Assembly (NCBI GenBank): GCA_016839765.1
Contig: JAEOTP010000015.1
Span: 1 to 64,000 of the forward strand
Reading direction: 5' to 3'
Length of the DNA: 64,000 nt
Source: Promethearchaeota archaeon
GTDB taxonomy: Archaea; Asgardarchaeota; Lokiarchaeia; Sigyniarchaeales; SOKP01
The notes under the pieces were generated by a model. It saw nothing but the letters and a program-made list of their open reading frames with translations, was not told where the DNA came from and ran no database searches. This document shows, one piece after another, positions 1-64,000 of this stretch (positions are counted from its first letter, which is position 1; each line of letters opens with the position of its first letter). A program made the translations under genes and the position numbers.

Positions 1-858
1 ACTGAAACTATATTCAAGCCCATAGCCCAAAGTGGCGCAGGTTGGGTCCATTACTATTCGGTTCCTTGGTAATCCTAATTCTATTGCATCTTTATTCATC
101 TTGATTTGATTATTTAAGTCCAGACTGGTCCATAGAAGGCAATTGTGGTCGTATTTTACCGCTAAAGGAATGACATCCTCCCATGTTGCCTTATCAGCAG
201 CGGAAAGCATTAAGACTTCACTTTCTGTTGCTGCTGCTGTAGCTTTAAACAGTTCAATATCTTTCGCTTTATTTCCAGAGCAACCAATAATTACCGGAAC
301 ATCAACAGCTTGTAGTATATCTTCTAAATATTTTACAGACTGAGAAATTGGAGCATCTCCCATTCCTGGATCGATTTCAAGGGAATGAAAGGTAACACAT
401 TCAGCTCCAAATTTATCTACTGCGAATTTTGCCCATTGTGCTGGATGTGCCAAAACATCTCCATATTCTTCTTTAATAGGTTTGGGTAGCATCATTTTGG
501 CACCCATATCGAATACGTCGTAGGTTACAAGTGGAGGATGAGGGTTTCTTTTGTCAAGTCCAACAAAATTGTAGAAAGGTGGAACCACTTCTCCTCCAAT
601 AACAGCTTTTTTGCCATTGGATCGGACAAATTCAACAGTTTGGATTGTTCCTGGATAAGCTACATCAAGTGAAAATTTGGTTGCGGTCCATTCTGCCTTT
701 CCAATACCAGGAAGAGCTGCTTGAGCCGCAGCTTGAACGATACTCGGAAGCATTTGGAATTCTAAATATTCTGCAAATAATTCTACGTCTTTTAATTCTA
801 TTTCTTCTGTATCTTTCATTAATTTAGCAAATTTTTTACTGATCTCTTCGAATGAAAT
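1..858 (-). CDS. cdhD: Acetyl-CoA decarbonylase/synthase (corrinoid Fe-S protein) delta subunit, 3' end runs off window
   Basis: Not in ORF track; manual translation of the minus strand gives ...IGGEVVPPFY...PPLVTYDVFD...PAQWAKFAVDKFGAE...LQAVDVPVIIGCSGN...RIVMDPTCATLGYGLEYSFS, typical of CdhD. First ATG at 819; frame open to ATT at 858 behind a GTGA SD-like motif. Confidence 0.93.
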   Translation of the reverse strand, partial: MSFEEISKKFAKLMKDTEEIELKDVELFAEYLEFQMLPSIVQAAAQAALPGIGKAEWTATKFSLDVAYPGTIQTVEFVRSNGKKAVIGGEVVPPFYNFVGLDKRNPHPPLVTYDVFDMGAKMMLPKPIKEEYGDVLAHPAQWAKFAVDKFGAECVTFHSLEIDPGMGDAPISQSVKYLEDILQAVDVPVIIGCSGNKAKDIELFKATAAATESEVLMLSAADKATWEDVIPLAVKYDHNCLLWTSLDLNNQIKMNKDAIELGLPRNRIVMDPTCATLGYGLEYSFS

Positions 859-1202
859 TTTATCTCACTTTTATTTTCTGTAATATTTGATAATTAGGCT
901 ATTGAAGAATTGAATTTAAAATTATGTGATGGAGATTGATCATGGACCAACTGATTCCATTACTTTTGTAGAGTATCAGACAAGAAATAAGGTCAGAATT
1001 ATGGGAAAAGGAAATTTATTTAAATTTAATAGTGATGATTTTCGATCATTATTAGAAATAATCAACGTTTTTTTTTAACTAAATTGTAGAATATTTAAAT
1101 GTAATAATATCTTAAAAAAAATTTACAGTAATTTTTAGAAAATAAAAAAAGAAAGTATTATTAAAATATTAAAAATATTTAGTTCACATAAGGTGATTGA
1201 TT

Positions 1203-1964
1203 ATGGGCAAATTGGATAATAAGGTCGCCATTGTAACAGGGGCAGGTCAGGGCGTTGGAAGAGGTATAGCCCTTGCATTTGCAAAGGAAGGTGCAACCGT
1301 CGTTGTGGCTGAAATCAATGAAGACTCAGCAAATTCAACAGCTGATGAACTGCGAAACCTGGGTGCCAAGGCGATGGCCATTAATTGTGATGTCAGTAAA
1401 CGTGAAGATGTAGATAAGGTTGTGCAGACCACAGTTGACGAATATGGGGCTATTGATATTTTGGTAAATAATGCGCAAAGTGTTCCACGACCAAGTACTC
1501 CCTTTGTGGAAATAACGCAAGAGGATTGGGATTTGACACTGGGGTCGGGTCTTATGGGGACATTCTTCTTCATGAAAGCCTGCTTCCCACATATGAAGGG
1601 AAGGGGTGGTAAGATCATCAACTTTGCTTCGGGTGCCGGAACCCAACGGATGGTGGGCTTTACACCCTACTCGGCAACCAAAGAAGCGATCCGAGCGATC
1701 ACAGGTGTAGCAGCTCGTGAGTGGGGAAAGCAAGGGATTAATGTGAATGTCGTCTGCCCTGCCGCAAACTCTCCAGGGATGATCCAGTGGAAGGAGAACT
1801 TCCCTGAACAGTATGAGGCATCAATGGCACAAATTCCGCTCGGACGAATCGGCGACTGCGAGGAGGATATTGGCCGGACAGTTGTGTTCCTTGCTAGCAG
1901 TGACTCTGATTACATTACAGGACAGACCATCATAGTTGATGGTGGCACTGATATCCATTCCTAA
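1203..1964 (+). CDS. Short-chain dehydrogenase/reductase (classical SDR)
   Basis: TGAGQGVG, NNAQ, YSATK, ITGQTIIVDGG motifs; ATG at 1203 follows GGTGA SD. Confidence 0.92.
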   Translation: MGKLDNKVAIVTGAGQGVGRGIALAFAKEGATVVVAEINEDSANSTADELRNLGAKAMAINCDVSKREDVDKVVQTTVDEYGAIDILVNNAQSVPRPSTPFVEITQEDWDLTLGSGLMGTFFFMKACFPHMKGRGGKIINFASGAGTQRMVGFTPYSATKEAIRAITGVAAREWGKQGINVNVVCPAANSPGMIQWKENFPEQYEASMAQIPLGRIGDCEEDIGRTVVFLASSDSDYITGQTIIVDGGTDIHS

Positions 1965-2034
1965 CGGACACTGAACTTTGCTACTTTGATTGCTTGGAAC
2001 TTGTCTGAAACGGAAAAAGAGAAAAAAATTAAAT

Positions 2035-2247
2035 TTACTTTTTTTTATTCAAAATTCCATTCTCAAAGAGAGTAAGGCAAAATAGAAAATTTCGCCAGTT
2101 GACGTTCCACCAGGCGTTAGATTTTCGGAAAACATATTTTTCGTTTCGAAAAGCGAAGCAGTTTTTATCCTCATCTAAATTGAATCGTTTATCATCAAAT
2201 CTGCGCTGAATTTCATCTAGTTCAAGGATTGTTGCGAATATAATCAA
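2035..2247 (-). other. Short ORF / possible gene remnant
   Basis: 70-aa ORF with TTG start, no recognisable motif or SD. Confidence 0.2.
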
Positions 2248-2278
2248 ACTTTTTTTTATAAAAAAATTAGTAAAAGAA

Positions 2279-3478
2279 TTAAAAATCTATATCTTTACCC
2301 TCATGAGCATATCTATAAATATTTTCGAAATCTGCTTTAGAAGGTAATCTTGGAGACATTGAGCCACTTGCGTCTTGAAAACATAAATTAACTAAGCTAT
2401 CCAAGTTTTTTTCTAATTGTTCTCTTGAAATTCCTAAATCTTGAATTTTTTCTGGAAATCCCACTTTATTAAATAGTTCTTTTATTCTTTCAATAACAAT
2501 ATTAGCTGCTTTTATATCATCATCATCCCATTTAGCCCATCCTAGTTGTTTTGCCAGTTTTGAATAAATTTCGGTTGATGGATCATCTTTATCAGGGTTA
2601 TTCAAACAATATTGTGTTACATATTTTAACATTAATCCTACACATCTACCATGAGGCGTCTGAAAGACTGCTCCAAGACAATGTCCAGTAGTATGTCCTA
2701 TATGTACATTAGCATTTCCAAATGCTAATCCCGCCATAGTAGCTGCTTGGTGGAGATAATCTCTAGCTTCCTTATTTTTTCCATCCTTATAAGCAATAGG
2801 CAAATATGTAAATACTAATTCGATTGCTTTAGTAGCTAAAGCATTACTGAATTCGTTTCTTCCGTTAGCGATCATGGCTTCCATAGAATGTGCTAAAACA
2901 TCCATACCAGTATCTAAAGTTAAATTGGGCGTCATTCCCGTAGGGAAAATGGGATCCAATATAGAATAAATCGGAACCAAGCCTCTATGCGCTTGGATAA
3001 GTTTTTGCCACACACCATCATTATATCTTGAGACAACCGCAGCATAAGTAGCATCTGCTCCAGTTCCAGAAGTAGTAGGAATTGCAATTAATTTGGCTTT
3101 GTTGCCTAATTCATAGAGATCATTGTTAAAAATATGTAAATCATCTATTCCAAATTCTGGAAATTCATAAATAGCCCACACACATTTTGCAGTATCTATT
3201 ACAGAACCTCCTCCTAACGCAATAATTAAATCTGGCTTATAGGATAAACAAGATTCTTTAGCTTTTAATACTACTTCTTCTTTTGGATCAGGTTCTACCT
3301 CATTAAATACATCATACTTCTTTCCTAATTTCTCTAATTTGTCTGTTAAAATCTTTAAGTATCCTAAATCTTGAATATTTTTATCAGTAACAACAAAACA
3401 CTTACTTCCTACAATATTTTCAAGAAAATCTAGAGCATCTTCTCCATAAACGATATTAGGACTATTGAAATACCACAT
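2279..3478 (-). CDS. Iron-containing alcohol dehydrogenase
   Basis: GGGSVID, IPTTSGTG, DVLAH, HTTGH..H metal ligands. Confidence 0.93.
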   Translation of the reverse strand: MWYFNSPNIVYGEDALDFLENIVGSKCFVVTDKNIQDLGYLKILTDKLEKLGKKYDVFNEVEPDPKEEVVLKAKESCLSYKPDLIIALGGGSVIDTAKCVWAIYEFPEFGIDDLHIFNNDLYELGNKAKLIAIPTTSGTGADATYAAVVSRYNDGVWQKLIQAHRGLVPIYSILDPIFPTGMTPNLTLDTGMDVLAHSMEAMIANGRNEFSNALATKAIELVFTYLPIAYKDGKNKEARDYLHQAATMAGLAFGNANVHIGHTTGHCLGAVFQTPHGRCVGLMLKYVTQYCLNNPDKDDPSTEIYSKLAKQLGWAKWDDDDIKAANIVIERIKELFNKVGFPEKIQDLGISREQLEKNLDSLVNLCFQDASGSMSPRLPSKADFENIYRYAHEGKDIDF

Positions 3479-3543
3479 TTATATATCACTTCTATAATTT
3501 TATTTTGGTTAATTTGAATAAATTAAAAAAGAAAAGAAATAAA

Positions 3544-3945
3544 TTATAGAAATTCTGTTTCTACATTCTGTAAACTATTTACAATTTCTTGGGCTGCTCT
3601 TGTAGCTCTCATCAACTTTGCCATATTTCCTACGAGTCTTAATTTTCCTGACATTACTCCTTGAATAGTATCCAATTCTTTTTTGGCAATTTTTACCCAA
3701 TTATCATATGGTCCAGAAAGTGTAAATTCTACATCAACTTCTTCACCTTCTTCTACTAATTTAACACCTGTGCATTCACCATGATATAATCCTAAAAAAA
3801 ATCGGACTTCACGGTCTAATGGTCCACTAGGTTCAATTACACAAAGCATGTTCCCTTCCCACCAGGATGCTGCCTCACTATAGGTGGGATTATCATTAAT
3901 AGCCTTCCCAAAGGCATCTAACCACTCTTTTGTTAAAATTTTCAT
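3544..3945 (-). CDS. SCP2 sterol/lipid-binding domain protein
   Basis: WEG...GPYDNWVKI...GVMSGKLRLVGNMAKLMR SCP2 signature. Confidence 0.88.
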   Translation of the reverse strand: MKILTKEWLDAFGKAINDNPTYSEAASWWEGNMLCVIEPSGPLDREVRFFLGLYHGECTGVKLVEEGEEVDVEFTLSGPYDNWVKIAKKELDTIQGVMSGKLRLVGNMAKLMRATRAAQEIVNSLQNVETEFL

Positions 3946-4024
3946 AATATTCCCCTTAAAGAATTCATTTTTTGTATTTTATTTTTTAAATATTTAATAT
4001 TTTTTAGTATTTATTAAAAAAAGT

Positions 4025-5212
4025 TTAGGTTAGAGTTAAATCCAGATGGATATCAGTTAAAGGATAAGATATACAAGGATGGATAAAGCCAAAATCTTTA
4101 TCAACCTCACGAATTGTAACTTCGGGAGGTACAAAAACTTTTCCAGAAATCATTTTAGTTCTGCACAATGCGCATTCACCTGAACGACATCCATTATTTA
4201 CATATAGAGCTAAGTTTTTTGTACGTTCTAAACTATTAATTAATGGCTCGGTACAATATGCTTCAAATTCAATTTTTTCTGTTTTACTATATTTCCTGAA
4301 TTTGATTGAAATGTTGACTTTTTTCGAACTATTAATTTCTGTTGGCCATCCCATAACTTGAGTGATATCATCTGGAACACCAAATGCTTCATAATATATT
4401 CTGTGTTTAGAAACTCCTAATTCTTTCATTTCCTCTTTTATGAATTGATACATAGGAAGATTTCCAACGATATAGAAATATTTATCCTTAATTGAACCGA
4501 TTTCATTTAAAATCTTATCTCTTGTAATAAAGCCACATTCACCTTTCCAATCAGACTCTGGTTCTGATAAAATAAAATTAGTCTTTATATTTGACCTTCT
4601 TTTTTGCATATCTTCTAATTCATCTCTAAATAGAATATCTTTTTCAGTTAAGCATCCGTATATTAGTGAGACGTTTAGAGGTATTGCTCTTTCAGAAATA
4701 TCTCGTAACATTGATATAAATGGTGTTATACCACATCCACCAGCAATATAGACTAAATCTTTACCATGAAACATTGAATTATAAGAGAGATTTCCTAATG
4801 GCTCAGTAACTTCAAAAATATCTCCAACTTTAGCATTTTCGAAAAAATATGGACTAACAAATCCGTCTTCTTTTTTTCTTATACCTAATTCATAGTAGGC
4901 GAGTTGATTAGGTGATGATACTATTGAATAAGGGCGTGAGGTTCGTACTCCGTTAATTTCTACTATAAGCCCTATATATTGTCCAGCACGAAACGGTGCA
5001 AGGGGTTTATTTTTTTTAGCAGAAATAAGCCTAAATAATTTTGTATCATGCGAGAGCGCCTTAATGTCGGTTATCTTTAATAATTGACTTCCTGGATGTA
5101 TTCTATCGCATAGGTTTTCCAAACCATCATAATACCAGGGTATTGCTTGAGTTTCTTCTCGCTGCTTTTTTAATTTTTCAGCTTTTTGATACTTTTTTAT
5201 ATCTTCCATCAT
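4025..5212 (-). CDS. FAD/NAD-binding ferredoxin reductase with C-terminal [2Fe-2S] domain (PaaE/KshB-like architecture)
   Basis: RPYSIVS, GFVS, AGGCGITP, EAFG, CRSGECALC...C; ATG at 5212 follows GGAGGTGG SD inside the end of the upstream gene. Confidence 0.88.
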   Translation of the reverse strand: MMEDIKKYQKAEKLKKQREETQAIPWYYDGLENLCDRIHPGSQLLKITDIKALSHDTKLFRLISAKKNKPLAPFRAGQYIGLIVEINGVRTSRPYSIVSSPNQLAYYELGIRKKEDGFVSPYFFENAKVGDIFEVTEPLGNLSYNSMFHGKDLVYIAGGCGITPFISMLRDISERAIPLNVSLIYGCLTEKDILFRDELEDMQKRRSNIKTNFILSEPESDWKGECGFITRDKILNEIGSIKDKYFYIVGNLPMYQFIKEEMKELGVSKHRIYYEAFGVPDDITQVMGWPTEINSSKKVNISIKFRKYSKTEKIEFEAYCTEPLINSLERTKNLALYVNNGCRSGECALCRTKMISGKVFVPPEVTIREVDKDFGFIHPCISYPLTDIHLDLTLT

Positions 5213-5214
5213 GA

Positions 5215-6768
5215 TTACCACCTCCCTTCAATTTTATCTTTTAAATACATCCCCGAAGCAATTCTACCGCCAAGGATTGTTGAAGAAAATCCTCCACCAA
5301 AGTTAGTCCAAGCACCAACTTGGTAAAGTCCAGAAATTGCACCTCTACTCTTTAATCTAAGTAGAGGTCCGTTTGTTACATCTTGAGTTGTTCCGTAAAT
5401 GGCGCCTTCAATATTTTTAGAATAACGGTAATATGTTAATGGGGTTGCTGCGACAGCCACTTCAATGTTTTCTCGAATTTCCGGACAAATTGTGTTTTCC
5501 ACTAATGTTACCATACTATTAGCAATTTCATCTTTAATATGAAAATATTGATCAGGAGGGACACTTTGCCACAATTTCCCCATTTGTAGAGTGGTCAGTA
5601 CTAATTGAGTAGTTCCTGGAGGAGAGATATCCTCATAGATATGATTATAACATGCCGCTACAATATATTTTGGTGCTTCTAATTTATTGAACATTTCAAA
5701 GGCTACATTTATATCATATTTTTCATTGATAAACGTTTCATGAGCAGTTAACCCTAAATCTTTATAAGATCTATTTAATCCAATATAAACAGAGAACCCT
5801 GAAGGTCCGATCTCTGGAGCGTAGATTTTTTTCTTATATTCATCAGGAACAACCTCAGGAGGTAACATCTTCATGGCAGTACATATTGGATTAACATTTG
5901 AGATTACTGCCTTACATTTATATACATCTCCATTTAGTAATTCTACTCCACAAACCTTATTATTTTCAACCAATATTCTATTAACTAAAGCATTATACCT
6001 TATTTCTCCACCTAATTTTTCAAAAGCCTCCACCATCGCATTTACTAATGAATGAGATCTTCCTAGAGGAAATGCTGCTCCCCAGTTTAAATAAAATATT
6101 AACATTGCAATGAATGCATAAGCATTTATCCTCTCTGGTGGTAAACCAAGATAACCCCATAGTTGTGATATCAATGAGATTAGTTTCTTATCTGTGAAAA
6201 ATTTATTATATAATTCTGACAACGTAATACCAGAAATACGTGGAAGCCATGGGTGTTCCTTAAGAACTTCTTGTGGCTTAAATTTTCCACCTTTTGAAGC
6301 AATATATTTAATTCCTTTTAAAACAGCTCCACACATCTCCATAAATTCTTCAATTCCTTTTTTTTCAGCAGGAAAAAGTTCTATTAACTTTTCTCTATAT
6401 TCATCTACACCCAAAGGCATAGTAACATCAAAACCGTCAAGATAGACACTCCGATAAAACTCAGGTATATGTTTAAACCTTAATTTATTTGGAACAACAC
6501 CTAGTCTTTCTAAAAATCTATAAAGACTTCCTTTATTATCTTGTGTTCCTATATCACTTAATTCATGAAGAGCACCTTCAAATTCAAACCGACCTCTCAC
6601 GAAGGAAGTTGCAAATCCACCTGGAACATTATGTTTTTCAAGTAGTAATACTGTTTCTCCTCTCAATACTAATTGACAAGCAGCACCAAGTCCTCCGAGC
6701 CCAGCTCCAATTACAATAACTGGAGATGTAGAAATTACTCTATTTTCATCATAAACACTATTTACCAT
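5215..6768 (-). CDS. Phytoene desaturase (CrtI)/retinol-saturase-like FAD oxidoreductase
   Basis: VIGAGLGGL, EKHNVPGG..SFVRGRFEFE, ATPLTYYRY...GAIYG, GLYQVGAW..GGG. Confidence 0.85.
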   Translation of the reverse strand: MVNSVYDENRVISTSPVIVIGAGLGGLGAACQLVLRGETVLLLEKHNVPGGFATSFVRGRFEFEGALHELSDIGTQDNKGSLYRFLERLGVVPNKLRFKHIPEFYRSVYLDGFDVTMPLGVDEYREKLIELFPAEKKGIEEFMEMCGAVLKGIKYIASKGGKFKPQEVLKEHPWLPRISGITLSELYNKFFTDKKLISLISQLWGYLGLPPERINAYAFIAMLIFYLNWGAAFPLGRSHSLVNAMVEAFEKLGGEIRYNALVNRILVENNKVCGVELLNGDVYKCKAVISNVNPICTAMKMLPPEVVPDEYKKKIYAPEIGPSGFSVYIGLNRSYKDLGLTAHETFINEKYDINVAFEMFNKLEAPKYIVAACYNHIYEDISPPGTTQLVLTTLQMGKLWQSVPPDQYFHIKDEIANSMVTLVENTICPEIRENIEVAVAATPLTYYRYSKNIEGAIYGTTQDVTNGPLLRLKSRGAISGLYQVGAWTNFGGGFSSTILGGRIASGMYLKDKIEGRW

Positions 6769-6817
6769 AAAAAATAATTCTACCAGATAGCATTTAAAAT
6801 TATAGATTTCACATTGG

Positions 6818-6863
6818 ATTTTCCATTTTTGGAAAATTAAAAAAAGTTTACAAACAAGTTTGT
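6818..6863. promoter_or_regulatory. Two palindromes upstream of the CrtI-like operon (candidate operators)
   Basis: ATTTTCCA-N4-TGGAAAAT (6818-6837) and ACAAAC-N2-GTTTGT (6850-6863). Confidence 0.35.
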
Positions 6864-6872
6864 TATTATTAG

Positions 6873-7688
6873 CTACTTACCTATGAAAATTGGTTTTCGT
6901 TTTTCTTTAAGTGCTTGCATTGATTCCTTAAAATCTTTTGAAGTAAATGTTTTTCTTAAGGCTTTATTCTCTAGATCGAGAGTATTGGAAAATATTTCTC
7001 TAAAGTAGCTATGCATCGTCTTTTTCATTAGTTTTATTGAAAGGTACGGACCTTTGGGAGGTATTAACTTTAAAGCTTGTTCTCTCACAAAAGGAATTAA
7101 CTCATCAGGAGGTAACACTTTATTTACCAAACCAAGCTCATAAGCTTGCTTAGCTGTGATTTTATCTCCAAAGTATACGATTTCTTTTGTTTTTTGAAAA
7201 CCTAGATAAAAAGGAAGAATAAAAGAATTAGCAAATTCAGGAATAATACCTCTCTTTACAAAATAGAAACCAAGCCAAGCATCTTCAGACATGTATATTA
7301 AATCTGCCCCAGACAAAGGCATCGTAATACCACCACCGATAGCCATTCCATTAATTGCAGCGATAACTGGTTTATTAAAGTCCCAAAACTTCATACATAA
7401 TTTTTTTTGAGCAATATCCATAATTTCAATTTCAGGATATTTTTTCATTTTTTCAAACATTTCTGGTTTGAAGTAACCACCAGAAGTGAAAGCAGTTCCT
7501 TTTGGATCACCAGTTATTATTAGAACTTTAGCATTCTTATCCTTTTCCATATCTTCTAAAACTCTATATATCTCTAAAAATGTTATATAAGTAACAGCAT
7601 TTCGTATTTCTGGTTTAGATATTATAACTGTACAAATACCGTTTTCTTCTTTTTCATATATGATATCTTCAAAATCTTCTATTATCAT
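6873..7688 (-). CDS. Enoyl-CoA hydratase/isomerase (crotonase family)
   Basis: KPVIAAINGMAIGGG, RGIIPE, AKQAYELGLVNKV, EKRKPIFIGK. Confidence 0.9.
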   Translation of the reverse strand: MIIEDFEDIIYEKEENGICTVIISKPEIRNAVTYITFLEIYRVLEDMEKDKNAKVLIITGDPKGTAFTSGGYFKPEMFEKMKKYPEIEIMDIAQKKLCMKFWDFNKPVIAAINGMAIGGGITMPLSGADLIYMSEDAWLGFYFVKRGIIPEFANSFILPFYLGFQKTKEIVYFGDKITAKQAYELGLVNKVLPPDELIPFVREQALKLIPPKGPYLSIKLMKKTMHSYFREIFSNTLDLENKALRKTFTSKDFKESMQALKEKRKPIFIGK

Positions 7689-7746
7689 CTTGAATTTAAA
7701 ACAATATTTAATTTAAAAAAAATAAGGAAAATTTATCACGTTATTA

Positions 7747-11228: not shown

Positions 11229-11230
11229 AT

Positions 11231-14298: not shown

Positions 14299-15539
14299 GG
14301 TTTTTTCACCCCCTCCTCATTTGCCATTACTATTACTGCAGCATATGCTGCTCCAGGACCCCCTATTGAATGTGAGATCGCCCTTCCCTTTTCAATTGTC
14401 ATAAGTTGATGTTTGCCTGCATCACCTCTTAGTTGAAGTGCTGCCTCTCCTGTTGACATTATTCCTGTCGCTCCCACTGCATGACCACAGCCTATTAAAC
14501 CTCCACATGGGCAACATGGGATTTCTCCATCCATAAAAGGACCTCCTGATTCAATCCATTTTCCACCCTCCCCGAAAGGTACGAATCCTAACTCTTCATA
14601 TGAAATCACTTCTTGTCCTGAAAATGCATCGTGCAGTTCAGCACAATCTATTTGATCTTTAATCTTATCGTAATCTAAACCCGCCATTTTATATGCTGCT
14701 TTTGCTGCATAGATGTTTGAATAAAGACGACCCATGTCTTCTCTATTCCCTATAAAACAATCTGTATTTGCAGCGCCTACTCCTGTAATCCAAATTGGAT
14801 TTTCGACTTTTAATTCTTTTACTTTTTGTTCATTAGCTAAAATCAATGCTGCTGAGGCTTCCGAGTAAAGACAACAATCTAACATTTTAAAGGGATAACA
14901 TATAATTCTCGAATTCATGACATCTTCAACAGTAATTTTCATTGGAGATTGTGCTTTTGGATTATTTATAGCATTACCATGATTTTTTACGGATACTAAC
15001 GCCATCTGTTCTTCTGTTGGATTCCCAAATTCTTCAAAATGGGCGTTCACCATAGTAACATAAGAACTCGCCGCCATCATACCCATAGGATATTCATAAG
15101 TCATGTCAGCAGAATATGCAATAGCATTTAATACTTCTGGAGTTGTAGTTCCTGTCTGTTCATCATAACAATCATTACATTTCTCTACACCTAAACAAAG
15201 GCTGAGATCTGATATTCCAGATGCTACTTCTGCATATGCCATTCTTACAGTATATCCTCCTGTAGCGCCACCTGTCGCTATCCGCGTGCCTGATTTATTA
15301 TTCATCCCTAAATAAGAATTGATAAAAATGTCAGGCATAAATTGCCGTTCGAATAACTCGTTATATATCCCATAAACAGTAGATTGAAGGTTTTTGTGAG
15401 TTATTTCAGCTCCATTTTTATTAGCATCTTCAAACGCTAATTTTGTGGCATCATATGCAAGTTCAAAATATGTTTTATCTAAGTATCGAGCTTTAAATGG
15501 TGTTATTCCAATTCCGATTATAGCTACTTTTTTAGGCAT
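14295..15539 (-). CDS. SCP-x/archaeal-type thiolase-family protein
   Basis: KNHGNAINNPKAQ, ELHDAFS, GGLIGCGHAVGATG. Confidence 0.9.
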   Translation of the reverse strand: MPKKVAIIGIGITPFKARYLDKTYFELAYDATKLAFEDANKNGAEITHKNLQSTVYGIYNELFERQFMPDIFINSYLGMNNKSGTRIATGGATGGYTVRMAYAEVASGISDLSLCLGVEKCNDCYDEQTGTTTPEVLNAIAYSADMTYEYPMGMMAASSYVTMVNAHFEEFGNPTEEQMALVSVKNHGNAINNPKAQSPMKITVEDVMNSRIICYPFKMLDCCLYSEASAALILANEQKVKELKVENPIWITGVGAANTDCFIGNREDMGRLYSNIYAAKAAYKMAGLDYDKIKDQIDCAELHDAFSGQEVISYEELGFVPFGEGGKWIESGGPFMDGEIPCCPCGGLIGCGHAVGATGIMSTGEAALQLRGDAGKHQLMTIEKGRAISHSIGGPGAAYAAVIVMANEEGVKKP

Positions 15540-20887: not shown

Positions 20888-20952
20888 ATGTTTTTTATCT
20901 TATTTAAATACTTTATTATAAATACATGAAAATATTAAGGAGATGAAAAGTA

Positions 20953-22635
20953 ATTTCTTGGGAAGAATTTAATGAATATCCTCATTCGATTGTGGGAGTT
21001 ATAAAAAAATGGGCTAAAGAACGCCCCAATAAAAAAGCACTTATTATATATGACACCAGTAAGGAAGTAACTTTTAAAGAGTTTAATGAAGCAATTAATA
21101 TTATGGCATTTAAACTTTTCAATATGGGATTTAGAAAAGGAGACATCATAATAACCTCATTACCTTTTCTGTATGAACATATTATTTTAGGATATGCGTG
21201 CGCAAAACTAGGTGTAATTTGGACACCATTAGACCTTAGATTGAAACCTCCAGAAATTATTAAATGCTTAGAATTATTAAAAGAAAAAGCAAAAATGTAT
21301 TGCCATTTAGGAAAGACGTCTGTAGCAAATTTCGGAATGATTGGTGCAGCGATTATGAAAAATAATCCTTGGTTACAATATGTAGTACAATTCAGCACAC
21401 CTGACGATAAATATAGAAAAGGGATAATTCCCGCATATCAGATTGTTGAGGAAGCAAAAAATGAAATGTCTGAAGCTACAAAAAAACCTGACACTATGAA
21501 AGAGTTTAATGAGGAATGTGCTAGAGTTAGTGAAAATGACCCTATTATGATTGTTTTTACTACAGGGAGTACAGGCTTTCCTAAACCTGCTATGCTCACA
21601 AATCTGGGAATTACATGTCAAAATCTGTGTTTATCTAAAGGACTTAAAGCAGACTCTAATGACATTATGCTAGTAAACCTTCCTCCGTCTCATGTTGGAG
21701 GAACTACAGAACAATTAATGACACCACTATTTAAAGGAGGAACCTGTGTGGTGCTTCATATTTTTGATCCCGCAAAAACCCTTGATGCTATTCAAAAATA
21801 TAAGGTTACTATAATGGGTCAAATCCCCGCTTTATTTGTAATGGAATGGAGATTACCGAATTATAGTCAATATGATTTAAGTTCACTTAAATTTGCTATT
21901 GCCGCTGGTCAACCTGTTGATAAACCATTCCTCGAAAAATTATCTGAAATGGCTCCAAATTTATTTACTGGTTTAGGATTAACTGAAAGTTCTGGATTTT
22001 GTTCATATACTCCAACTGACCTCACTCTGGATGAATTTACTGGAACATTAGGTTATGATTTCCCAATTTACCCCATGACTATTAGAAAGCCTATGAAAGA
22101 GGATGGGAGTGCAGGTAATGAACTTCCAGAAGGAGAAATCGGTGAAATATGTTATAATGGTCCCCAAACTTTTCTTGGTTATTTTGGTAATGAAGAAGCA
22201 ACAAGAAAAACATTATCTACTGATGGATATCTTTATACTGGAGATATGGGTTTTATTGATAGCAAGGGTCTCCATCTTTCTGGTCGTAGAAAATTTCTTA
22301 TCAAACCTAAAGGATTTCAAGTTTTTCCACCCGAAGTTGAGACATTTATTGCTGAATTGCCTCAAGTTGAGTTTGTTGGTGTTGTTGGAGCTAAACATGA
22401 AATATTCACAGAGGGCGTTGTTGTTTATATAAAATTAAGAGAGGGGCAAAGTTTAACTGAAAAAGAAGTGTTTGATCATTGTAAAGGGATAGCTGCTTAT
22501 AAAAGACCATCCTTAGTTGTGTTTCTAGATGAATTTCCGCTCAATCGTGTGGCCAAAACCGATTATGTAGCTCTTAAGGAGCGTGTAGAAAAGGATATTG
22601 AAGAAGCTAGAGCAATAGGGGGATGGGATACTTAA
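20953..22635 (+). CDS. Acyl-CoA synthetase (AMP-binding, class I adenylate-forming)
   Basis: FTTGSTGFPK, GLGLTE, YTGD, PLNRVAK; start placed at ATT 20953 (SD AGGAGATGA); ORF track starts at GTG 20992. Confidence 0.88.
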   Translation: MSWEEFNEYPHSIVGVIKKWAKERPNKKALIIYDTSKEVTFKEFNEAINIMAFKLFNMGFRKGDIIITSLPFLYEHIILGYACAKLGVIWTPLDLRLKPPEIIKCLELLKEKAKMYCHLGKTSVANFGMIGAAIMKNNPWLQYVVQFSTPDDKYRKGIIPAYQIVEEAKNEMSEATKKPDTMKEFNEECARVSENDPIMIVFTTGSTGFPKPAMLTNLGITCQNLCLSKGLKADSNDIMLVNLPPSHVGGTTEQLMTPLFKGGTCVVLHIFDPAKTLDAIQKYKVTIMGQIPALFVMEWRLPNYSQYDLSSLKFAIAAGQPVDKPFLEKLSEMAPNLFTGLGLTESSGFCSYTPTDLTLDEFTGTLGYDFPIYPMTIRKPMKEDGSAGNELPEGEIGEICYNGPQTFLGYFGNEEATRKTLSTDGYLYTGDMGFIDSKGLHLSGRRKFLIKPKGFQVFPPEVETFIAELPQVEFVGVVGAKHEIFTEGVVVYIKLREGQSLTEKEVFDHCKGIAAYKRPSLVVFLDEFPLNRVAKTDYVALKERVEKDIEEARAIGGWDT

Positions 22636-22821: not shown

Positions 22822-23118
22822 GTGGCTAAGAAAAAGAAGGTTGAAGATGATACAGAAAAAGTCTTTATTGGCAAAAAGAAATCTATGAGTTATGTCATGG
22901 CAGCAATGGTTATTTTAAATGATAAACCAGTAAGACTTCTTGCTCGGGGTAGATCAATCTCTAGAGCAGTAGATGTAGCCGAAATTCTTATTAATAAATT
23001 TGTCCGCGGGGCGACTTATGGAGAAATAAAAATTGATACTGAAATAATAACTAATGATGATAATACTCAAACAAATGTATCATCTATTGAAATTGAAGTA
23101 ATTCCACCTAAGAAATAA
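22822..23118 (+). CDS. albA: DNA/RNA-binding protein Alba
   Basis: VFIGKK..MSYV, ARGRSISRAVDVAE, NVSSIEI. Confidence 0.95.
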   Translation: MAKKKKVEDDTEKVFIGKKKSMSYVMAAMVILNDKPVRLLARGRSISRAVDVAEILINKFVRGATYGEIKIDTEIITNDDNTQTNVSSIEIEVIPPKK

Positions 23119-40299: not shown

Positions 40300-41242
40300 A
40301 TGAGAATCCTGTACAAAGTATAATCACACCGCCTTTTTGCTTATAATACTAGTAGGATTGCTTTTTTCAACACTATCTATTCCAGCTAAAGGACAAGAAT
40401 TGATATGGTATGATGATTTTTACGATATAAATCACATTGAATATTTTATTGAATTCTACCCAGATAGAAATGGATATTCGACAACGAAATATGCTATGGA
40501 ATTAAATAAAATCACCGAAGGAGATAATACTAATTTAATGGTTGATATATATTACAATGACTTAGATTTAACCTATACTAATGATGATTTCTTTTACACA
40601 ATATCTCTTAAAACCCGTGAAATATTAGATACAAGTGATAATATTTATGATATTTACTTTAATGGAACATATACAGAATTATTCTTGAATCTTTCGAATA
40701 TAGGAAATCCACAATTATTTCGAATAGATGAGAATGTTGTATTCACCGATTATTTAACAAGGGGTTTTTCATTAGGATTATTCAAAATAAATACCGAATT
40801 TAACTACATTGAAGAAGTAATATATAACGAGAATTTATTGCTTAATTTTACAACTTACCATTATTCGACAACATATACATGGAGTGGACTTGGGATAGCT
40901 TGAGATTCATTCGCATCTTGGATGTTAGAAGCTGATTATTTTTTCGATAAAATTACTGGTCTTTTAATAGCCGAAACTTTACATGTTCATCGATGGGACT
41001 ATAAAGATAATAAGCCACAATATGAGCAATACGATTATCATTCTTTTAACCGCAAATTAGCAATGGTTAATTCACAAATCATTTTGAAAGATTACCAAAA
41101 AATCGTAAAAGGAGATAATATTTACCTGCTAGAAAGCATATATTGGATAATATCTATAGGAATTATTGTTTCTATTACTATACTTTACGGTATTTTGAAG
41201 AGATCAAAAATTAACATAAAGACCAAGGAGAACCTACGATGA
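40300..41242 (+). pseudogene. Disrupted secreted/surface protein (signal peptide and C-terminal TM)
   Basis: ORFs 40337-40903 and 40922-41242 are in the same frame separated by one TGA; ATG 40300 is out of frame by 1 nt with the signal-peptide h-region. Confidence 0.6.
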
Positions 41243-55663: not shown

Positions 55664-56275
55664 ATGGTTGAGTTGAATAAATTCATAGAAGAGTTAAAAA
55701 GTTCACGAAATATTGTTCGGATAACGGTAGTAGGAGATGGTGCGGTAGGGAAAACAACTTTAGTCCGAGCACTTCTTCGAAAAACTAAAAATTGTTCTGG
55801 AAATCATTCAAATATTAATTTAATAGAGGAAAAGGAAATTAAGCGTACTCCCTTCATAGAGATAGAATCTTGGACATATAAAGATTTGATAATTCAGTGC
55901 TATGATTTAGCAGGCCAAAGAATTCCAGGTGCTCATCCTTTAGATATTTTACAAAGTCAAGTTATTAGTTCAATAGATATTTTCATTTTTGTTTTCTCAG
56001 TTGATAGATATAAGTCTTTTGAAAACCTTAATAATTGGAGGACATTAATGAATTTAAATAACATGAGAAGGGATAATAACGGATTAATACTTGTTGGAAA
56101 CAAAATAGACTTAGAGAGAAATGTATCAAGAGGACTAGTACAATTAATTGCTGGGGAAGACAGATACTTTCATTCATATGTAGAAACAAGTGCAACAAAG
56201 GAAATTGGAATTGAAGAATTATTAGATGAAATTGTTAATGTTGGAAAAAAAATCTTAACATTTTACAGCTCTTAA
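55664..56275 (+). CDS. Ras-superfamily small GTPase
   Basis: GDGAVGKT, RT, DLAGQ, NKID, ETSA all intact. Confidence 0.92.
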   Translation: MVELNKFIEELKSSRNIVRITVVGDGAVGKTTLVRALLRKTKNCSGNHSNINLIEEKEIKRTPFIEIESWTYKDLIIQCYDLAGQRIPGAHPLDILQSQVISSIDIFIFVFSVDRYKSFENLNNWRTLMNLNNMRRDNNGLILVGNKIDLERNVSRGLVQLIAGEDRYFHSYVETSATKEIGIEELLDEIVNVGKKILTFYSS

Positions 56276-56286
56276 TTGATAATTGT

Positions 56287-58506: not shown

Positions 58507-58524
58507 AGATTAATATTTACTTTT

Positions 58525-58965
58525 GTGAAGCGTATGGAACCTAAATTTATGTCAAAAGTATTAAAAATTAAAGATAAAACCAGAATAAAAGTTCGTTTTA
58601 ATGACACGGATGCAATGGGTATCGTACATTTTAAAAATTATTTAGTATATTTTGACGATGGTTTTGTCAGTTTTATGAATAACTTACTTGCTCCTAAAAG
58701 AATAGAGGACACTGTTCATGAAGGATTTGTATTTGGTGTTAAAAAAGTTGATATTACTTATCAAGGTTCTGTAGGATTTGGGGATTATGTAATAGTTGAG
58801 ACCCAAATAACAGAAATGGGGAATTCTTCTGTTACATTTCATCATAAGATTTTTAGGGAATCCGATAATAAATTAATTGCAACAATTAATTGCGTAAGGC
58901 TAGTTATGGAGCTTCGAACTAATAAATTAGTAAAAGTTAATGATTTTTTTACTAAATATCTTTAA
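58525..58965 (+). CDS. Acyl-CoA thioesterase (4HBT/YbgC hot-dog)
   Basis: VRFNDTDAMGIVHFKNYLVYFD. Confidence 0.9.
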   Translation: MKRMEPKFMSKVLKIKDKTRIKVRFNDTDAMGIVHFKNYLVYFDDGFVSFMNNLLAPKRIEDTVHEGFVFGVKKVDITYQGSVGFGDYVIVETQITEMGNSSVTFHHKIFRESDNKLIATINCVRLVMELRTNKLVKVNDFFTKYL

Positions 58966-59040
58966 TTTTTAATAAGATTATACATTCAAATGATCATTCT
59001 ATTTGATTATATTTTATAAAGAGTAAAGAAGGTTAAGAAT

Positions 59041-60054
59041 ATGGATTCTAATATTGCAGCAGCCAATGCTCTTCAATATGTTTTAGAAGCTAAACCAGGG
59101 GAAACTATACTAATAATTTCCGATGATATAAAAAAAGAAGTAGGACAAGCTTTCGCAAGTGGAGCAATTGATTTAGGGCTGTGGACTCGTTTAGTTATTT
59201 TAGAAACGGAAGATGAATTATTTAGAACAGAAATACCTGCTAATCTATTAGAAATGCTAAACTCACCTTATAAACCAGATATTTTTATCAATATTTTTAG
59301 AGATACCAGTAAAGAAACACCTTTTCGAATTAAGATAGTTCAATTAGAGACTCGAAAGAAGCTTTCACGAGCGGGACACTGTCCAGGTATAACTATGGAT
59401 ATGTTAACAAAAGGAGCTTTATCATTAAAAAAGGAAGAATATATTAAAATGCAAAATAATGCTAGAAGGTTATTAACCGTACTACAAGATGTAGAATCAG
59501 CGAAAGTAAAAGCACCAAATGGTTCCAATTTCGAGTTAAGTGTTAAAAATAGAACTTGGTTCTCAGATACATATATTGATTGGAAATTAATGAAATGGAT
59601 GAATTTACCTGTTGGGGAAGTTCTTATAGGACCTATTGAAACCTCAATGCAAGGAACTCTAGTATGTGATCTAGCAATTGGTGGAATAGGTCCAATAGAA
59701 AAAAAAATTACGTTAGAGGTTAAGGACGGTCGTGTTGAGAGTGTTGTAAGTGAAGATAAAGAAGTTCTCAACAATGTTAAAGAAACACAAGCAATTGATG
59801 AGATGGCAAAATATGTAGGAGAATTTGCCTTTGGACTTAACCCTAAAGCCAGATTAGTCGAACAATTTCTCGAAGCTGAAAAAATAGATAATGCGATACA
59901 TGTTGCGTTTGGCAACAATATGGATTACCCAGGCATAGTAGCAAATAATTCAGCACAACATCAAGACTTTTTGGTTGATAACCCAACAGTAGAAATATTT
60001 TACACAAATGGTCGTTCTCGTATAGTGATGGATAAAGGAAAATTAATTATATAA
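59041..60054 (+). CDS. M29-like aminopeptidase
   Basis: NLPVGEV, GEFAFGLN, EAEK, IHVAFG, HQD. Confidence 0.85.
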   Translation: MDSNIAAANALQYVLEAKPGETILIISDDIKKEVGQAFASGAIDLGLWTRLVILETEDELFRTEIPANLLEMLNSPYKPDIFINIFRDTSKETPFRIKIVQLETRKKLSRAGHCPGITMDMLTKGALSLKKEEYIKMQNNARRLLTVLQDVESAKVKAPNGSNFELSVKNRTWFSDTYIDWKLMKWMNLPVGEVLIGPIETSMQGTLVCDLAIGGIGPIEKKITLEVKDGRVESVVSEDKEVLNNVKETQAIDEMAKYVGEFAFGLNPKARLVEQFLEAEKIDNAIHVAFGNNMDYPGIVANNSAQHQDFLVDNPTVEIFYTNGRSRIVMDKGKLII

Positions 60055-60082
60055 TTAATTTTTACAATATTTCTATTTTTTA

Positions 60083-61183
60083 TCATGTAATTTGAATAGG
60101 GGGTATAAATACATCTCTTGGACCGGTTCTTTTTAGTTTAATGGCATTTTCAGGACAAAAATGAGCACACACTCCACACCCTATACATTTTTTTTGATTT
60201 ACTTTTGCTGTTGAATTACTTAACTCAATTGTTTCCATAGGACATTTTTCTACACAAGTTCCACATCCTAGACAATATTCTTCATTAATTACAGCTAAAT
60301 ATGATGATATTGTATGTAAAGGCGCAATTCCTTGGTAATACATTCGAAACGGGCCACAACAACATTTGCAGCAGTTACATATTGCTTCTAAACCTCGATT
60401 TGTATCCAAATGAACATGAAATACTTTGTGAACTAAACCATAATCCTCAGCTTCTCTAAAGATTTTTAAAGCATCCTCTTTCGAGATGGGTTTCCCAAAA
60501 TTATGTTCTATAACAAATTGAGCACTTTTATCTAAAAAAAAGCAATTTTGTTTCGGTGCGTTTAATTTACATGGATCATCTACCAACTCTTTTTCTTGCC
60601 GACAGTAACAATTTGCTAAAGCAATATCATCATAATCATTGATAATTTGTTCTATTTCTTCATAAGGCATAATACCCTCACCAGCTACCTCTATTTGTTT
60701 TTCTACTGGAATAATTCGATCTAGTGCTGGAGTATTCTTAAATTGTTCAACAATACGATCATAATTCTTCTGAGTTCCTTCTCTCAATTCCTTAAATAAT
60801 TTTTCAAAAAAATATGCCTTTTTTTTATCTTTTTCTGTTGAAGTTCCCCTAAGAAATTGATATTCAAAAATTCCAGGCCACATTGGCATTAAACGATAAA
60901 CCATAATGCCTGTTCTTCTACTGGGAACTCCAACAATTACACCATTGTCCATTAAGCTATTTAATATTTTATTTAATGAGTCATCATCTAAATCGCTTTT
61001 TTGTTTAATCTCGTTAATATTTAGTGAAGGTTTTTTAAAAATTAAAATAAAATTAGCTTGTTCTTCTGACATTAAAGTTTTTATTAACTCTATTATTGTA
61101 GGTGTTATTGGTATAGGCATTTGTCCTGCTTTAGCAATAGTTCTTGCTGCTCGATACCAGAGTTTTTCTATTTTTTCAGTCAT
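60083..61183 (-). CDS. 4Fe-4S dicluster protein with N-terminal wHTH-like region
   Basis: CYCR, C, CNCCKCCC, CLGCGTCVEKCP, CIGCGVCAHFCP. Confidence 0.85.
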   Translation of the reverse strand: MTEKIEKLWYRAARTIAKAGQMPIPITPTIIELIKTLMSEEQANFILIFKKPSLNINEIKQKSDLDDDSLNKILNSLMDNGVIVGVPSRRTGIMVYRLMPMWPGIFEYQFLRGTSTEKDKKKAYFFEKLFKELREGTQKNYDRIVEQFKNTPALDRIIPVEKQIEVAGEGIMPYEEIEQIINDYDDIALANCYCRQEKELVDDPCKLNAPKQNCFFLDKSAQFVIEHNFGKPISKEDALKIFREAEDYGLVHKVFHVHLDTNRGLEAICNCCKCCCGPFRMYYQGIAPLHTISSYLAVINEEYCLGCGTCVEKCPMETIELSNSTAKVNQKKCIGCGVCAHFCPENAIKLKRTGPRDVFIPPIQIT

Positions 61184-61290
61184 AATTTAAAATGAAGCCA
61201 GAATATTTTATCCCAAAATTAATGTATAGAAAAAACTAACATTATTTAATTATATTGCGCTGTTTATGAAAAAGAAATTAATGACTGTTT

Positions 61291-61716
61291 TCAAAGAGGT
61301 TCTCTGACTAGATAATATATTTTTTCAGAATTGCATTTAGGACAATTCACTTTCTTATCCTTTGAAGCGGATTCGTCCTCCCATTCTTCATTGCAATTTA
61401 AACAACCATACCCTATAAATCCTTTTTTAACATCAATATTTCCCCCATAAACTTTAATGGCTTTTCCCTCCATTATAGCTTGCGTTACCTTTTGATGAGC
61501 GCTTTCTAATATTCTAGAAAAAGTAGGTTGAGACACTCCCATTTTATTTGCAGAATCTTGTTGATTTAAATCGATATAGTGTTTTAAACGCAATGCTTCG
61601 AATTCTGCTACAGTTAGAATTATTTGATCTTCAGCTAATGGGCCCTCTATTGCTCTTCGAAAATATTGATTATCTGGTGGACTTTTCACCATACGCATTC
61701 TTGTTCGACGACCCAT
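61291..61716 (-). CDS. DUF134 DNA-binding protein with C-terminal zinc ribbon
   Basis: MGR..R.R, EFEALRL...L.Q..A.KMGVSQPTFSRIL.SA; CLNC...CPKC; ATG at 61716 preferred over TTG 61761. Confidence 0.88.
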   Translation of the reverse strand: MGRRTRMRMVKSPPDNQYFRRAIEGPLAEDQIILTVAEFEALRLKHYIDLNQQDSANKMGVSQPTFSRILESAHQKVTQAIMEGKAIKVYGGNIDVKKGFIGYGCLNCNEEWEDESASKDKKVNCPKCNSEKIYYLVREPL

Positions 61717-61970
61717 AGTCAACACTGAAATAATTAAGTTATATTTGAAATATTTATTCAAAATTTTTATAATTATTTATTCACATTATAAATTTTAATT
61801 ATGGGGTTATATGTTATAAATGAATTGAATTTTTAATGTGAGATATCGATTAGATCAAATTCTTTATTTTTTTTAATTTTTAAATTAATTTTAAAAAATA
61901 TATTACCTACATTGATATTATTATCATATATTTATAAAAATCAAAAAAAGGGTGTTCTAAAGTTAGATAT

Positions 61971-63065
61971 ATTGAATATCAAATAATTATTGGAGATACT
62001 CCACCTGGAATAATAACTGAGGATATTCGGGAAATTGGTACTCCAGAAAAGGGTAAGGTTTTTGAGGAGCAAATTGAAGAAGTAGAGAGGGAAGCAAAAT
62101 TATTTCCTAAAGGTGTAATTCACCATCTTTCAACTGAAGCCTACGTTTGGAACTTTTCTCTAGTGTATCAAGCTCGTAGTTTTGATGTAATTAAATGGAA
62201 AACTGCCTTTTCTTGGAAAGAGGCTATGGATGAAAAAGAAATGAAAAAATATGAAATTGAAAAAGGCTTGTTCATCGGTGTAGTTGCTGGAATATTCTTT
62301 TTTTTAATAGATGAAAATATTGATAGAAATTACATTCAATTAGCAGAAATGATTGACATTTTCATTCAAAAAACCAATCAGGAGGCACCATTTTTAGTCT
62401 ATGGGCTTTTAGAAAGTAAAAAAAAAGTTACTGAATTAAAAACTAATAAAGAAATGCTCAAAAATCTAGCGGATATAAAAACTTTGGTATCTAAATATGG
62501 TGGTGAATTTAAGCTAGAGAATTTAAAAGAAATTAAAATAAATTTACCATCCTTGATCAGAGAATATTCCCATTATATATTAACAACCTTTAAATCTTCT
62601 GCAACGAATTATAAAAATCTTAAACTTAATCAAGTATATTTCTTAGACTATGAAGATTTAACCGCATTAAGAGAGATTGAACTTTCATTAAGTCAACAAT
62701 TAAAAGCTGGAGAGACTGTAGATGAATTGTTAGCTGAATTGTTCTTTAAATATCTAAAGCAGTATCAAGAAAAAATTGAACCTGTTATAGAAGAACCGGT
62801 AGCTCAAGAAGTTGAAAAACCTGTTCCTAAAAGAGCTCAAATAATTAAGGTAATTATCGAAGAAATTAAAAAAGGAATAAGAAGACAATGTCCTGAATGC
62901 CTTAATAATGACAGAAATAAAATTAGAGAAGTTTTAGATAAAGATAATATAATAATGGAAAACCCAAACATTTACGGGTTTAAATATATCTGCGGAATGT
63001 GTGGTTGTGAATTTACTAAAACAGATATGATAAAAAAGGTAAAAGAAGAACAAAAAACTTCTTAG
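61971..63065 (+). CDS. Hypothetical protein: degenerate GTPase-like N-terminal domain plus C-terminal zinc ribbon
   Basis: Frame open from 61938; first canonical start GTG 62163; CPEC...CGMC at C-terminus; true start uncertain. Confidence 0.65.
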   Translation: MEYQIIIGDTPPGIITEDIREIGTPEKGKVFEEQIEEVEREAKLFPKGVIHHLSTEAYVWNFSLVYQARSFDVIKWKTAFSWKEAMDEKEMKKYEIEKGLFIGVVAGIFFFLIDENIDRNYIQLAEMIDIFIQKTNQEAPFLVYGLLESKKKVTELKTNKEMLKNLADIKTLVSKYGGEFKLENLKEIKINLPSLIREYSHYILTTFKSSATNYKNLKLNQVYFLDYEDLTALREIELSLSQQLKAGETVDELLAELFFKYLKQYQEKIEPVIEEPVAQEVEKPVPKRAQIIKVIIEEIKKGIRRQCPECLNNDRNKIREVLDKDNIIMENPNIYGFKYICGMCGCEFTKTDMIKKVKEEQKTS

Positions 63066-63134
63066 TTAATGAATTTTTATATTTTTTGAATTATTTAACC
63101 AAATTATTAACTTATTTTTCAACGGGTGTATATA

Positions 63135-64000
63135 ATTAAAATAGAGTATGCAAATCGATTAGGGAGATTGCCTAAATATATTTTTGCTGCTATTGAAGAG
63201 CTAAAAGAACAGAAAAAAAAAGAAGGAATGGATTTAATTTCTCTCGGTATAGGAGATCCTGATTTACCAACTCCAAATGTAATTATTGAAGAATTAATTA
63301 AACAAGTTAAATTACCTGAAAACCAAAATTATCCCTCCAGTATGGGTGAGCAAGAATTTAGAGAGGCAATAGCAAAATGGAATAAAATAAGATATGGAAT
63401 AAATTTAAACCCCTCTACAGAAGTTTCTCATGTCTTGGGAGGTAAAGAAGGAGTAGCAAACATTGCAAGAGCTTTTATTAACCCAGGAGATCTCGTATTA
63501 TGCCCTAATCCTGGATATCCTGTTTATGAAAATGGTGCTACAAAATTATGCGATGGAGAGCCATATTTAATGCCATTAAAAAAAGAAAATAATTTCTTAC
63601 CAGAAATTGAAGCAATTGATAAAGAAGTCCTTAAGAAAGCTAAATTGATATATTTAAATTACCCTAATAATCCTACTGGTGCGATAGTTCCTAGAGATTA
63701 TTTAAAAAAAATGATTGATTTTGCTGAAGATTATAATTTTATCATAGTTTATGACAATCCATATTCAGAATTCACCTATGGTAATTATATTGCCCCCTCT
63801 ATATTGCAATTTAGTTTAGATCACGTAGAAATCAACAGCGCATCCAAAATGTTTAATATGACAGGTTTTCGATGCGGTTGGATAGCTGGAAATGCTGAAA
63901 TAATTGAGGGCCTAAGAAAAGTTAAATCTCAAATTGATTCAGGGGGTTCAATTTTTATTCAAAAAGCACTAATTAAGGGTCTCAATGAATATACTTCGCA
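63135..64000 (+). CDS. dapL: LL-diaminopimelate aminotransferase-like class I/II PLP aminotransferase, 3' truncated by window
   Basis: Manual translation: YANRLGRLPKYIF, LGIGDPDLPTP, GGKEG, PGYPVY, LNYPNNPTGA, DNPYSE, SASKMFNMTGFRCGW, KSQIDSG. Confidence 0.85.
   Translation, partial: MKIEYANRLGRLPKYIFAAIEELKEQKKKEGMDLISLGIGDPDLPTPNVIIEELIKQVKLPENQNYPSSMGEQEFREAIAKWNKIRYGINLNPSTEVSHVLGGKEGVANIARAFINPGDLVLCPNPGYPVYENGATKLCDGEPYLMPLKKENNFLPEIEAIDKEVLKKAKLIYLNYPNNPTGAIVPRDYLKKMIDFAEDYNFIIVYDNPYSEFTYGNYIAPSILQFSLDHVEINSASKMFNMTGFRCGWIAGNAEIIEGLRKVKSQIDSGGSIFIQKALIKGLNEYTS

Follow-up and report, generated by a model that had tools for sequence, protein, structure and literature searches.

Predicted ATT, ATA and ATC start codons behind Shine–Dalgarno motifs in a genus of Lokiarchaeia

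The stretch of DNA analysed here (the window) comprises the 64,000 nucleotides at positions 1 to 64,000 of contig JAEOTP010000015.1 (C64:1-64000) of a Promethearchaeota archaeon in the class Lokiarchaeia. The genome is a metagenome-assembled genome (MAG) of 3.32 Mb, 96% complete and with 29.7% GC; matching DNA is contained in marine sediment sequencing runs. Four genes in the window, cdhD, an acyl-CoA synthetase gene, dapL and a gene beginning near 61,962, have frames that stay open and protein-like upstream of the first convincing ATG, GTG or TTG (hereafter canonical) codon. A preliminary description of the window had proposed that all four begin at ATT behind a Shine–Dalgarno (SD) motif and that the lineage may use AUU initiation routinely. 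We use ATH for ATT, ATA or ATC. The 3′ end of the 16S rRNA was located on contig C56 and carries the standard archaeal anti-SD, complementary to the SD motifs described below. Start columns (the aligned codon at each site) were read in orthologs drawn from 60 relatives, which as kin are not independent.

The gene cdhD, assigned by family profile and ortholog comparison, encodes the delta subunit of carbon monoxide dehydrogenase/acetyl-CoA synthase and occupies 1–858 on the minus strand, extending past the contig end. Its predicted start is the ATT at 856–858, based on the ortholog column and a start-site model posterior of 0.94. The SD motif GTGA (865–868) lies 6 nt upstream; the TGA within it is in frame, two codons before the ATT, and both motif and spacing are kept in nearly all 29 orthologs. 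The first ATG (819) is 13 codons downstream, such that a gene caller starting there loses 858–820. The start column holds 21 ATT, 2 ATA, 5 ATG and 1 TTG. Residue 9 of the predicted protein, inside the extension, aligns with position 3 of the TIGR00381 profile. Amino-acid identity among orthologs is 78% in the extension compared with 40% upstream of the site, and codon changes in the extension are synonymous in 84 cases and non-synonymous in 57. The SD duplex is −5.3 kcal/mol in orthologs with a non-ATG start and −3.5 kcal/mol in those with ATG; the protein tree shows three ATG/ATH switches. We note that the genome holds another cdhD at G000:C40:53815, with 88% identity to that of the window and likewise with ATT behind GTGA, which could be either a paralog or contamination of the bin.

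The long-chain acyl-CoA synthetase (AMP-binding family, by family profile search) is predicted to be a 560-residue protein encoded at 20953–22635 on the plus strand. The ATT at 20953–20955 is supported by the ortholog column and a model posterior of 0.98, and sits 6 nt from the SD AGGAGATGA (20938–20946), within which lie a TGA in frame and, at 20943, an ATG out of frame. The first GTG (20992) is 13 codons downstream. ATT is found in four sister species that form one clade (support 99/98), whereas 14 others, nine further members of the genus and five more distant relatives, have ATG in the column and the same N-terminus. The NF004837 (acyl-CoA ligase) profile alignment starts at residue 7. The SD duplex is −9.9 kcal/mol in the ATT carriers against a mean of −4.0 kcal/mol in the ATG carriers. 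The protein tree contains a single ATG/ATH switch, the gain of ATT in the four-species clade. The public gene call is the shortened 547-residue form from GTG 20992, an instance of the N-terminal mis-annotation that the preliminary description had anticipated. A gene for Alba (22822–23118, plus strand) lies immediately 3′ of the synthetase gene.

The third gene, dapL, encodes LL-diaminopimelate aminotransferase (NF006756) from 63135 on the plus strand and extends past the end of the window at 64000. The predicted ATT start (63135–63137), assigned from the ortholog column, is separated by 6 nt from the SD GGTG (63125–63128). This SD includes an in-frame GTG (63126) three codons upstream of the ATT, which makes dapL in this genome ambiguous when taken by itself. 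The 30 orthologs show 20 ATT, 2 ATC, 2 ATA and 6 ATG. Residue 3 aligns with position 2 of the NF006756 profile, and the extension is 62% identical compared with 19% upstream of the site. The SD duplex is −6.1 kcal/mol in non-ATG orthologs and −3.4 kcal/mol in ATG orthologs. The protein tree gives three ATG/ATH switches and is also compatible with a single origin.

The fourth gene (61962–63065, plus strand) encodes a 367-residue protein defined by its open frame and orthologs. It has a C-terminal Cys-pair (zinc-ribbon-like) segment, and searches of Pfam, NCBIfam and the Atlas gave no family match; the Cys-pair segment is also shared by numerous further proteins of the order. The preliminary description was correct that 64 codons here are free of canonical starts, but its choice of ATT 61971 does not hold. 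That codon is at a spacer of 15 from the SD and has a posterior of 0.11; the SD points three codons earlier, to the GTT at 61962–61964 (posterior 0.84), which is most likely the start. The start column contains GTT in seven orthologs, ATT in five and ATG in one, and the SD (GGTG at 61951–61954), as GGTG(A), is found at equal spacing in all the non-ATG orthologs. An in-frame stop lies upstream, with no canonical codon before the conserved N-terminal residues; in one species the GTT comes immediately after a TAA. All orthologs keep the Arg-Tyr next to the start, and the N-terminal 29 codons are 78% identical compared with 27% upstream. The first canonical codon, GTG 62163, is 67 codons in. The SD duplex is −7.3 kcal/mol in non-ATG orthologs and −5.6 kcal/mol in the ATG ortholog. 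This assignment is less certain than the other three, and GTT 61962 is probably an isolated double-mismatch start derived from ATT.

Taken across the four genes, the extensions are 62–86% identical among orthologs, with synonymous changes, and the upstream regions 19–40% identical in three of them; the extensions are under purifying selection. The start columns of cdhD, the synthetase and dapL contain start-like codons only, with no Val, other Leu or further codons. Internal Ile columns, used as a control, show a change to another codon 25% of the time and to ATG 0.9% of the time. In all four genes the SD duplex is stronger in the orthologs that lack an ATG start, kin again not being independent. 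The motifs, spacers and positions reported earlier for cdhD, the synthetase and dapL are all present in the sequence, as is the same 6-nt spacing at the ATG gene beginning at 1203 on the plus strand, and the proposed ortholog alignment places ATG from several relatives exactly at the ATT column.

Two rival explanations have to be considered. The proteins could begin at nearby canonical codons, whether the GTG in an SD, a downstream ATG, GTG or TTG, or ATG 20943 followed by a frameshift, leaving the ATT as an Ile codon or untranslated. The in-frame GTG of dapL, the canonical codons 13 codons on in cdhD and the synthetase, and the presence of the out-of-frame ATG in all four ATT-bearing synthetase genes would suit such starts. 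The frame, however, is closed a short way upstream by in-frame stops in 22 of 23 ATH orthologs of cdhD, in all four of the synthetase and in 8 of 24 of dapL. In dapL the stop falls between SD and ATH, which excludes a start at the GTG within the SD in those eight, and some dapL orthologs offer no further canonical codon until 48 or 171 codons downstream. Together with the selection acting on the extensions and the ATG of relatives at the same column, these observations make nearby canonical starts very improbable. Since the genome is a MAG, error for ATG in sequencing or assembly was also considered. Sister species from other samples share the ATT codons, and two Logan read assemblies, in which an ATG had been named as the contrary outcome, have ATT at the synthetase site; contigs bearing the public call likewise have ATT upstream. 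The sharing by independent species and read assemblies, and the frame- and SD-specific peak described next, reduce the chance of such an error to a negligible level.

A genome-wide, model-free test was made on open-frame leaders, in which codons at least five upstream of the first canonical start were scored for SD match. SDs belonging to the downstream canonical start were excluded; the signal is weak when these are included. In-frame ATH codons behind an SD match of at least 5 nt at a spacer of 5–7 number 70 against 18.0 expected. For ATT alone, the count called for in the preliminary description, the figures are 38 against 9.0 (Poisson p 6e-13). The other two frames give no excess (12 against 26 and 8 against 16 expected for ATH). 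At an aligned spacer of 6 there are 20 ATT, 8 ATA and 8 ATC sites compared with 29 among 11,436 other codons, and the spacer peak is at 6–7 for ATG and ATH codons alike. GTH, TTH and CTN codons show no excess behind SD in this test; general use of such starts is therefore rejected, and GTT 61962 is an exception.

Start usage was estimated by two models. A joint expectation-maximisation (EM) over all 61 codons in 2717 open reading frames (ORFs) of 120 or more codons gave ATG 71.7, TTG 10.9, ATT 4.5, GTG 3.3, ATA 3.2 and ATC 1.4%, followed by TTT 0.6 and CTG 0.4%. ATH codons total 9.1%, around 240 of the 2717 long ORFs or about one gene in eleven. The second model, trained on canonical starts only and cross-fitted, gave ATH 8.9% (bootstrap interval 7.4–9.9), with ten control triplet sets at or below 1.0%. 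The ATT share is 4.3–4.5% across the two models, above that of GTG (about 3.2–3.3%). Among the 121 confident ATH calls, the next canonical codon lies a median of 23 codons away. Routine AUU initiation as first proposed thus survives in a broader form, at about 9% of genes; ATT alone was too narrow, as ATA and ATC are included, with rare CTG and GTT. Exchange also runs the other way, several ATG genes of this genome being ATH in relatives. When 98 well-aligned start ATGs were compared with G018, a genome of the same genus, 94 were ATG, 3 ATH and 1 TTG with nothing else, whereas internal Met codons that differed mostly faced non-start codons. From the sequences compared, ATH starts are very probably real and common in this genus.

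The range beyond this genome was examined with 400-kb samples from other Asgard genomes, an under-powered test. The joint EM is unstable at this scale (subsets of the own genome gave 1–7%). Cross-fitted ATH percentages were 6.6 in G018 (wide interval) and, in four more distant genomes, 3.6 in G060, 2.8 in G044, 0.9 in G061 and 4.4 in G072, with controls reaching 2.9–4.2 and subsets of the own genome 3–11. The samples are too small relative to this noise, so a high ATH level is shown for the genus only. We note in passing that the window genes at 15539 and 11228 (both minus strand) have ATG here, with homologs in relatives showing ATT (three of four) and ATA in the same column. At 40310–40903 (plus strand) an open, coding-like frame continues nine codons 5′ of the called TTG 40337; there the model chose a non-start codon.

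The initiation machinery was then read for features that might bear on start selection. The gene for initiation factor aIF1 (G000:C91:35519, minus strand), whose nearest named relatives are from Promethearchaeota (Lokiarchaeia) MAGs, contains no ATG, GTG or TTG before the zinc knuckle and would start at ATT behind a conserved GTGA at a 9-nt spacer. None of 80 named relatives has a canonical aIF1 start (77 ATT, 3 ATC). The codon is much more uniform than internal Ile codons (around 53% ATT) and, unlike in the metabolic genes, is never ATG. Other Asgard families start aIF1 with ATA, GTT, CTG or an SD-less GTG, and some with ATG or TTG; four relatives carry two aIF1 genes. Sulfolobus aIF1 discriminates against AUU starts (PMC4705826), and this property together with the fixed ATT on aIF1 fits a feedback like that of bacterial infC. 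Feedback alone would be insufficient for the genome-wide ATH level, since E. coli has it and yet has few AUU genes.

The initiator tRNA, which was read in relatives as its gene is not assembled in this genome, has in genus members a CAT anticodon, the three G–C pairs and A1. The T-loop of the initiator tRNA-Met gene in G029 and G005 is interrupted near 59/60, a non-canonical intron position, by an insert of roughly 31 nt, and ARAGORN misses the gene. Elsewhere in the genome a tRNA with a TCA anticodon (G000:C34:4361-4453) is called tRNA-Sec by ARAGORN, in agreement with known selenocysteine use in Lokiarchaeia. An extra initiator tRNA with a GAT anticodon was sought; four pattern hits were checked and none is a tRNA. 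A defective aIF1 loop 1 was discarded by reference to the R31, Y32 and K34 region of the Pyrococcus protein (PMC6237735): the basic residues are kept, and the Trp in place of Tyr also occurs in other Asgard. A broken Tsr3 was likewise dismissed, as its two supposed stops fall beyond the end of an intact gene (G000:C56:5621-5983, minus strand); Tsr3 lacks the last approximately 20 Pfam positions across the whole order, and the class's other orders have the full-length form. Nep1 is intact, as is the terminal Arg of uS9, and aIF2 beta and two full-length aIF1A paralogs (G000:C47:4912 and C63:901) were found. The sole oddity fixed in the lineage is a Tyr-to-Phe change beside the terminal Arg of uS9 (G000:C49:19863-20243, minus strand). 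The tail is Phe-Arg in all 15 genus genomes and in three other Lokiarchaeia (G051, G053 and G056), and Tyr-Arg in 30 other Asgard genomes and in most other Lokiarchaeia. The uS9 tail contacts the initiator anticodon loop (PMC7005279), and as a cause of relaxed starts we regard the change as a lead only.

Our preferred reading is that ATH codons serve this genus as starts of an ordinary, if weaker, kind, through relaxed checking of the third position combined with SD anchoring; on the sequence evidence we give it a probability of roughly 0.85. The SD:anti-SD duplex would set the ATH codon in the P site, where the unchanged CAU initiator tRNA would pair with the codon's first and second bases, a mismatch at the third being tolerated. 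Ribosomes initiating there would insert methionine and produce the full-length protein. AT-biased mutation may convert ATG to ATH, and the changes would persist where a stronger SD compensates, with reversion possible. The switches on the protein trees and the SD correlation in four genes form the basis for this compensation step; its cause is a suggestion. Holding aIF1 at ATT would add feedback of the infC kind, setting the overall stringency such that AUU can still serve for initiation.

Several points weigh against this reading or limit it. The figure of 9% is model-based. The model-free SD excess amounts to around 52 genes (2%), a floor of about 50, with SD present at 29% of ATG starts and most genes here having none. 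Thirteen predicted ATH genes had testable orthologs; most columns were ATH or ATG, five columns included a canonical codon, and a few of the calls with low posteriors looked wrong. The ortholog counts come from kin. With aIF1 loop 1, the uS9 terminal Arg, Nep1 and Tsr3 all intact, no clear lesion accounts for the tolerance.

Two further explanations accept initiation at ATH and differ as to why it occurs. A dedicated decoding change could read AUH, through a modified C34 that DNA sequence would not reveal (compare mitochondrial 5-formylcytidine, f5C), an extra initiator tRNA or a P site altered by the uS9 tail. The near confinement of the relaxation to the third position fits such a change, the Phe-Arg tail follows the genus as set out above, and in E. 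coli the uS9 tail and base 966 influence start fidelity (PMC3643588). The four pattern hits checked for an initiator-like GAT tRNA were nevertheless negative, and the uS9 change is conservative and amounts in essence to a single event in the lineage; two genomes that likewise have no canonical aIF1 start do not carry it. We consider a dedicated change somewhat unlikely. Each ATH start could instead be a selected regulatory device, the genes forming an aIF1-sensitive regulon without general tolerance. ATH is kept across most of the genus in cdhD and dapL (24 of 30 each in the tree counts), aIF1 is never ATG in the 80 genomes, and AUU mRNAs of E. coli respond to temperature and nutrients (PMC5499595). 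The ATH candidates, however, are functionally unrelated by their N-terminal motifs (SMC-like ATPase, small GTPases, dehydrogenases, ABC ATPases), and ATG and ATH are exchanged between close species, with the synthetase ATT gained in one four-species clade. A regulon is thus unlikely, and general relaxation of start-codon selection in this lineage is the interpretation we infer. We tentatively add a broader proposal, a minority possibility in our estimation: a heritable P-site or initiator-tRNA change may have widened the start code to AUN, and even to GUU where the SD is good, with tuning by a loop through the AUU start of aIF1 that would link the bacterial infC and eukaryotic eIF1 circuits in a lineage near the root of eukaryotes.

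In E. coli, pcnB starts with AUU. The gene for bacterial IF3, infC, also has an AUU start, with autoregulation (Butler 1987, reviewed in PMC4705826). As with infC, the AUU here is SD-led, would be read by a normal initiator tRNA and also begins the gene of a fidelity factor. The bacterial AUU starts comprise a handful of genes, whereas AUU here is not limited in this manner, with about 9% of genes ATH-started by model, at least around 50 by the model-free count and ATT above GTG. The aIF1 fold is, moreover, unrelated to IF3, and feedback here is a proposal. Eukaryotic eIF1 autoregulates through an AUG in poor context (PMC4705826, PMC6237735). The factor is homologous and its gene also has a suboptimal start; the weak element in aIF1 is, however, an AUU codon behind an SD at a 9-nt spacer rather than AUG context. 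Another precedent is the ATT start proposed for Kariarchaeum atubA (PMC13394414), also an Asgard gene shortened in GenBank, in which ATT with a plausible ribosome-binding site restores a conserved N-terminus. That proposal covers a single gene from another Asgard class, describes the start as rare and makes no genome-wide claim.

Animal mitochondria use ATN start codons, and NCBI table 11 lists ATT, ATC and ATA as alternative initiators. All three ATH codons start genes at genome scale in mitochondria, as predicted here; the mitochondrial mRNAs are leaderless and served by an f5C34 tRNA and mtIF3, whereas the present starts are SD-led in a free-living archaeon where ATH codons encode Ile internally. 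Reviews of archaeal initiation give AUG, GUG and UUG only (PMC7531240). The system is otherwise standard, with aIF1, aIF1A, aIF2 beta and the same anti-SD, and ATG still provides 72% of starts. In Haloferax ribosome profiling (Ribo-seq), near-cognate codons accounted for around 30% of the 160 alternative sites and were left aside (PMC7261190); those were not, unlike the starts predicted here, the main starts of core genes. Our literature searches turned up no account of ATH starts used at genome scale in Asgard archaea, only the atubA paper surfacing (PMC13394414), with many subscription papers outside the literature searched. AUU initiation as such (infC) and one proposed Asgard ATT start (atubA) were therefore already known; new here are the GTT start, the two control-bounded estimates of about 9%, the compensation by SD strength within sets of orthologs and the lead from uS9.

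Standard gene finders would cut such proteins short. Databases probably hold truncated versions of, or lack, some 5–10% of the proteins of this large genus, which would affect domain assignment, the prediction of structures and the expression of Asgard proteins in heterologous hosts, with atubA as the precedent. The AUU fixed on aIF1 would make an archaeal autoregulation loop directly testable. A lineage in which AUU ranks above GUG would indicate that start stringency can be far lower in a free-living cell, and it would offer natural variants with which to ask how the strict AUG selection of eukaryotes arose.

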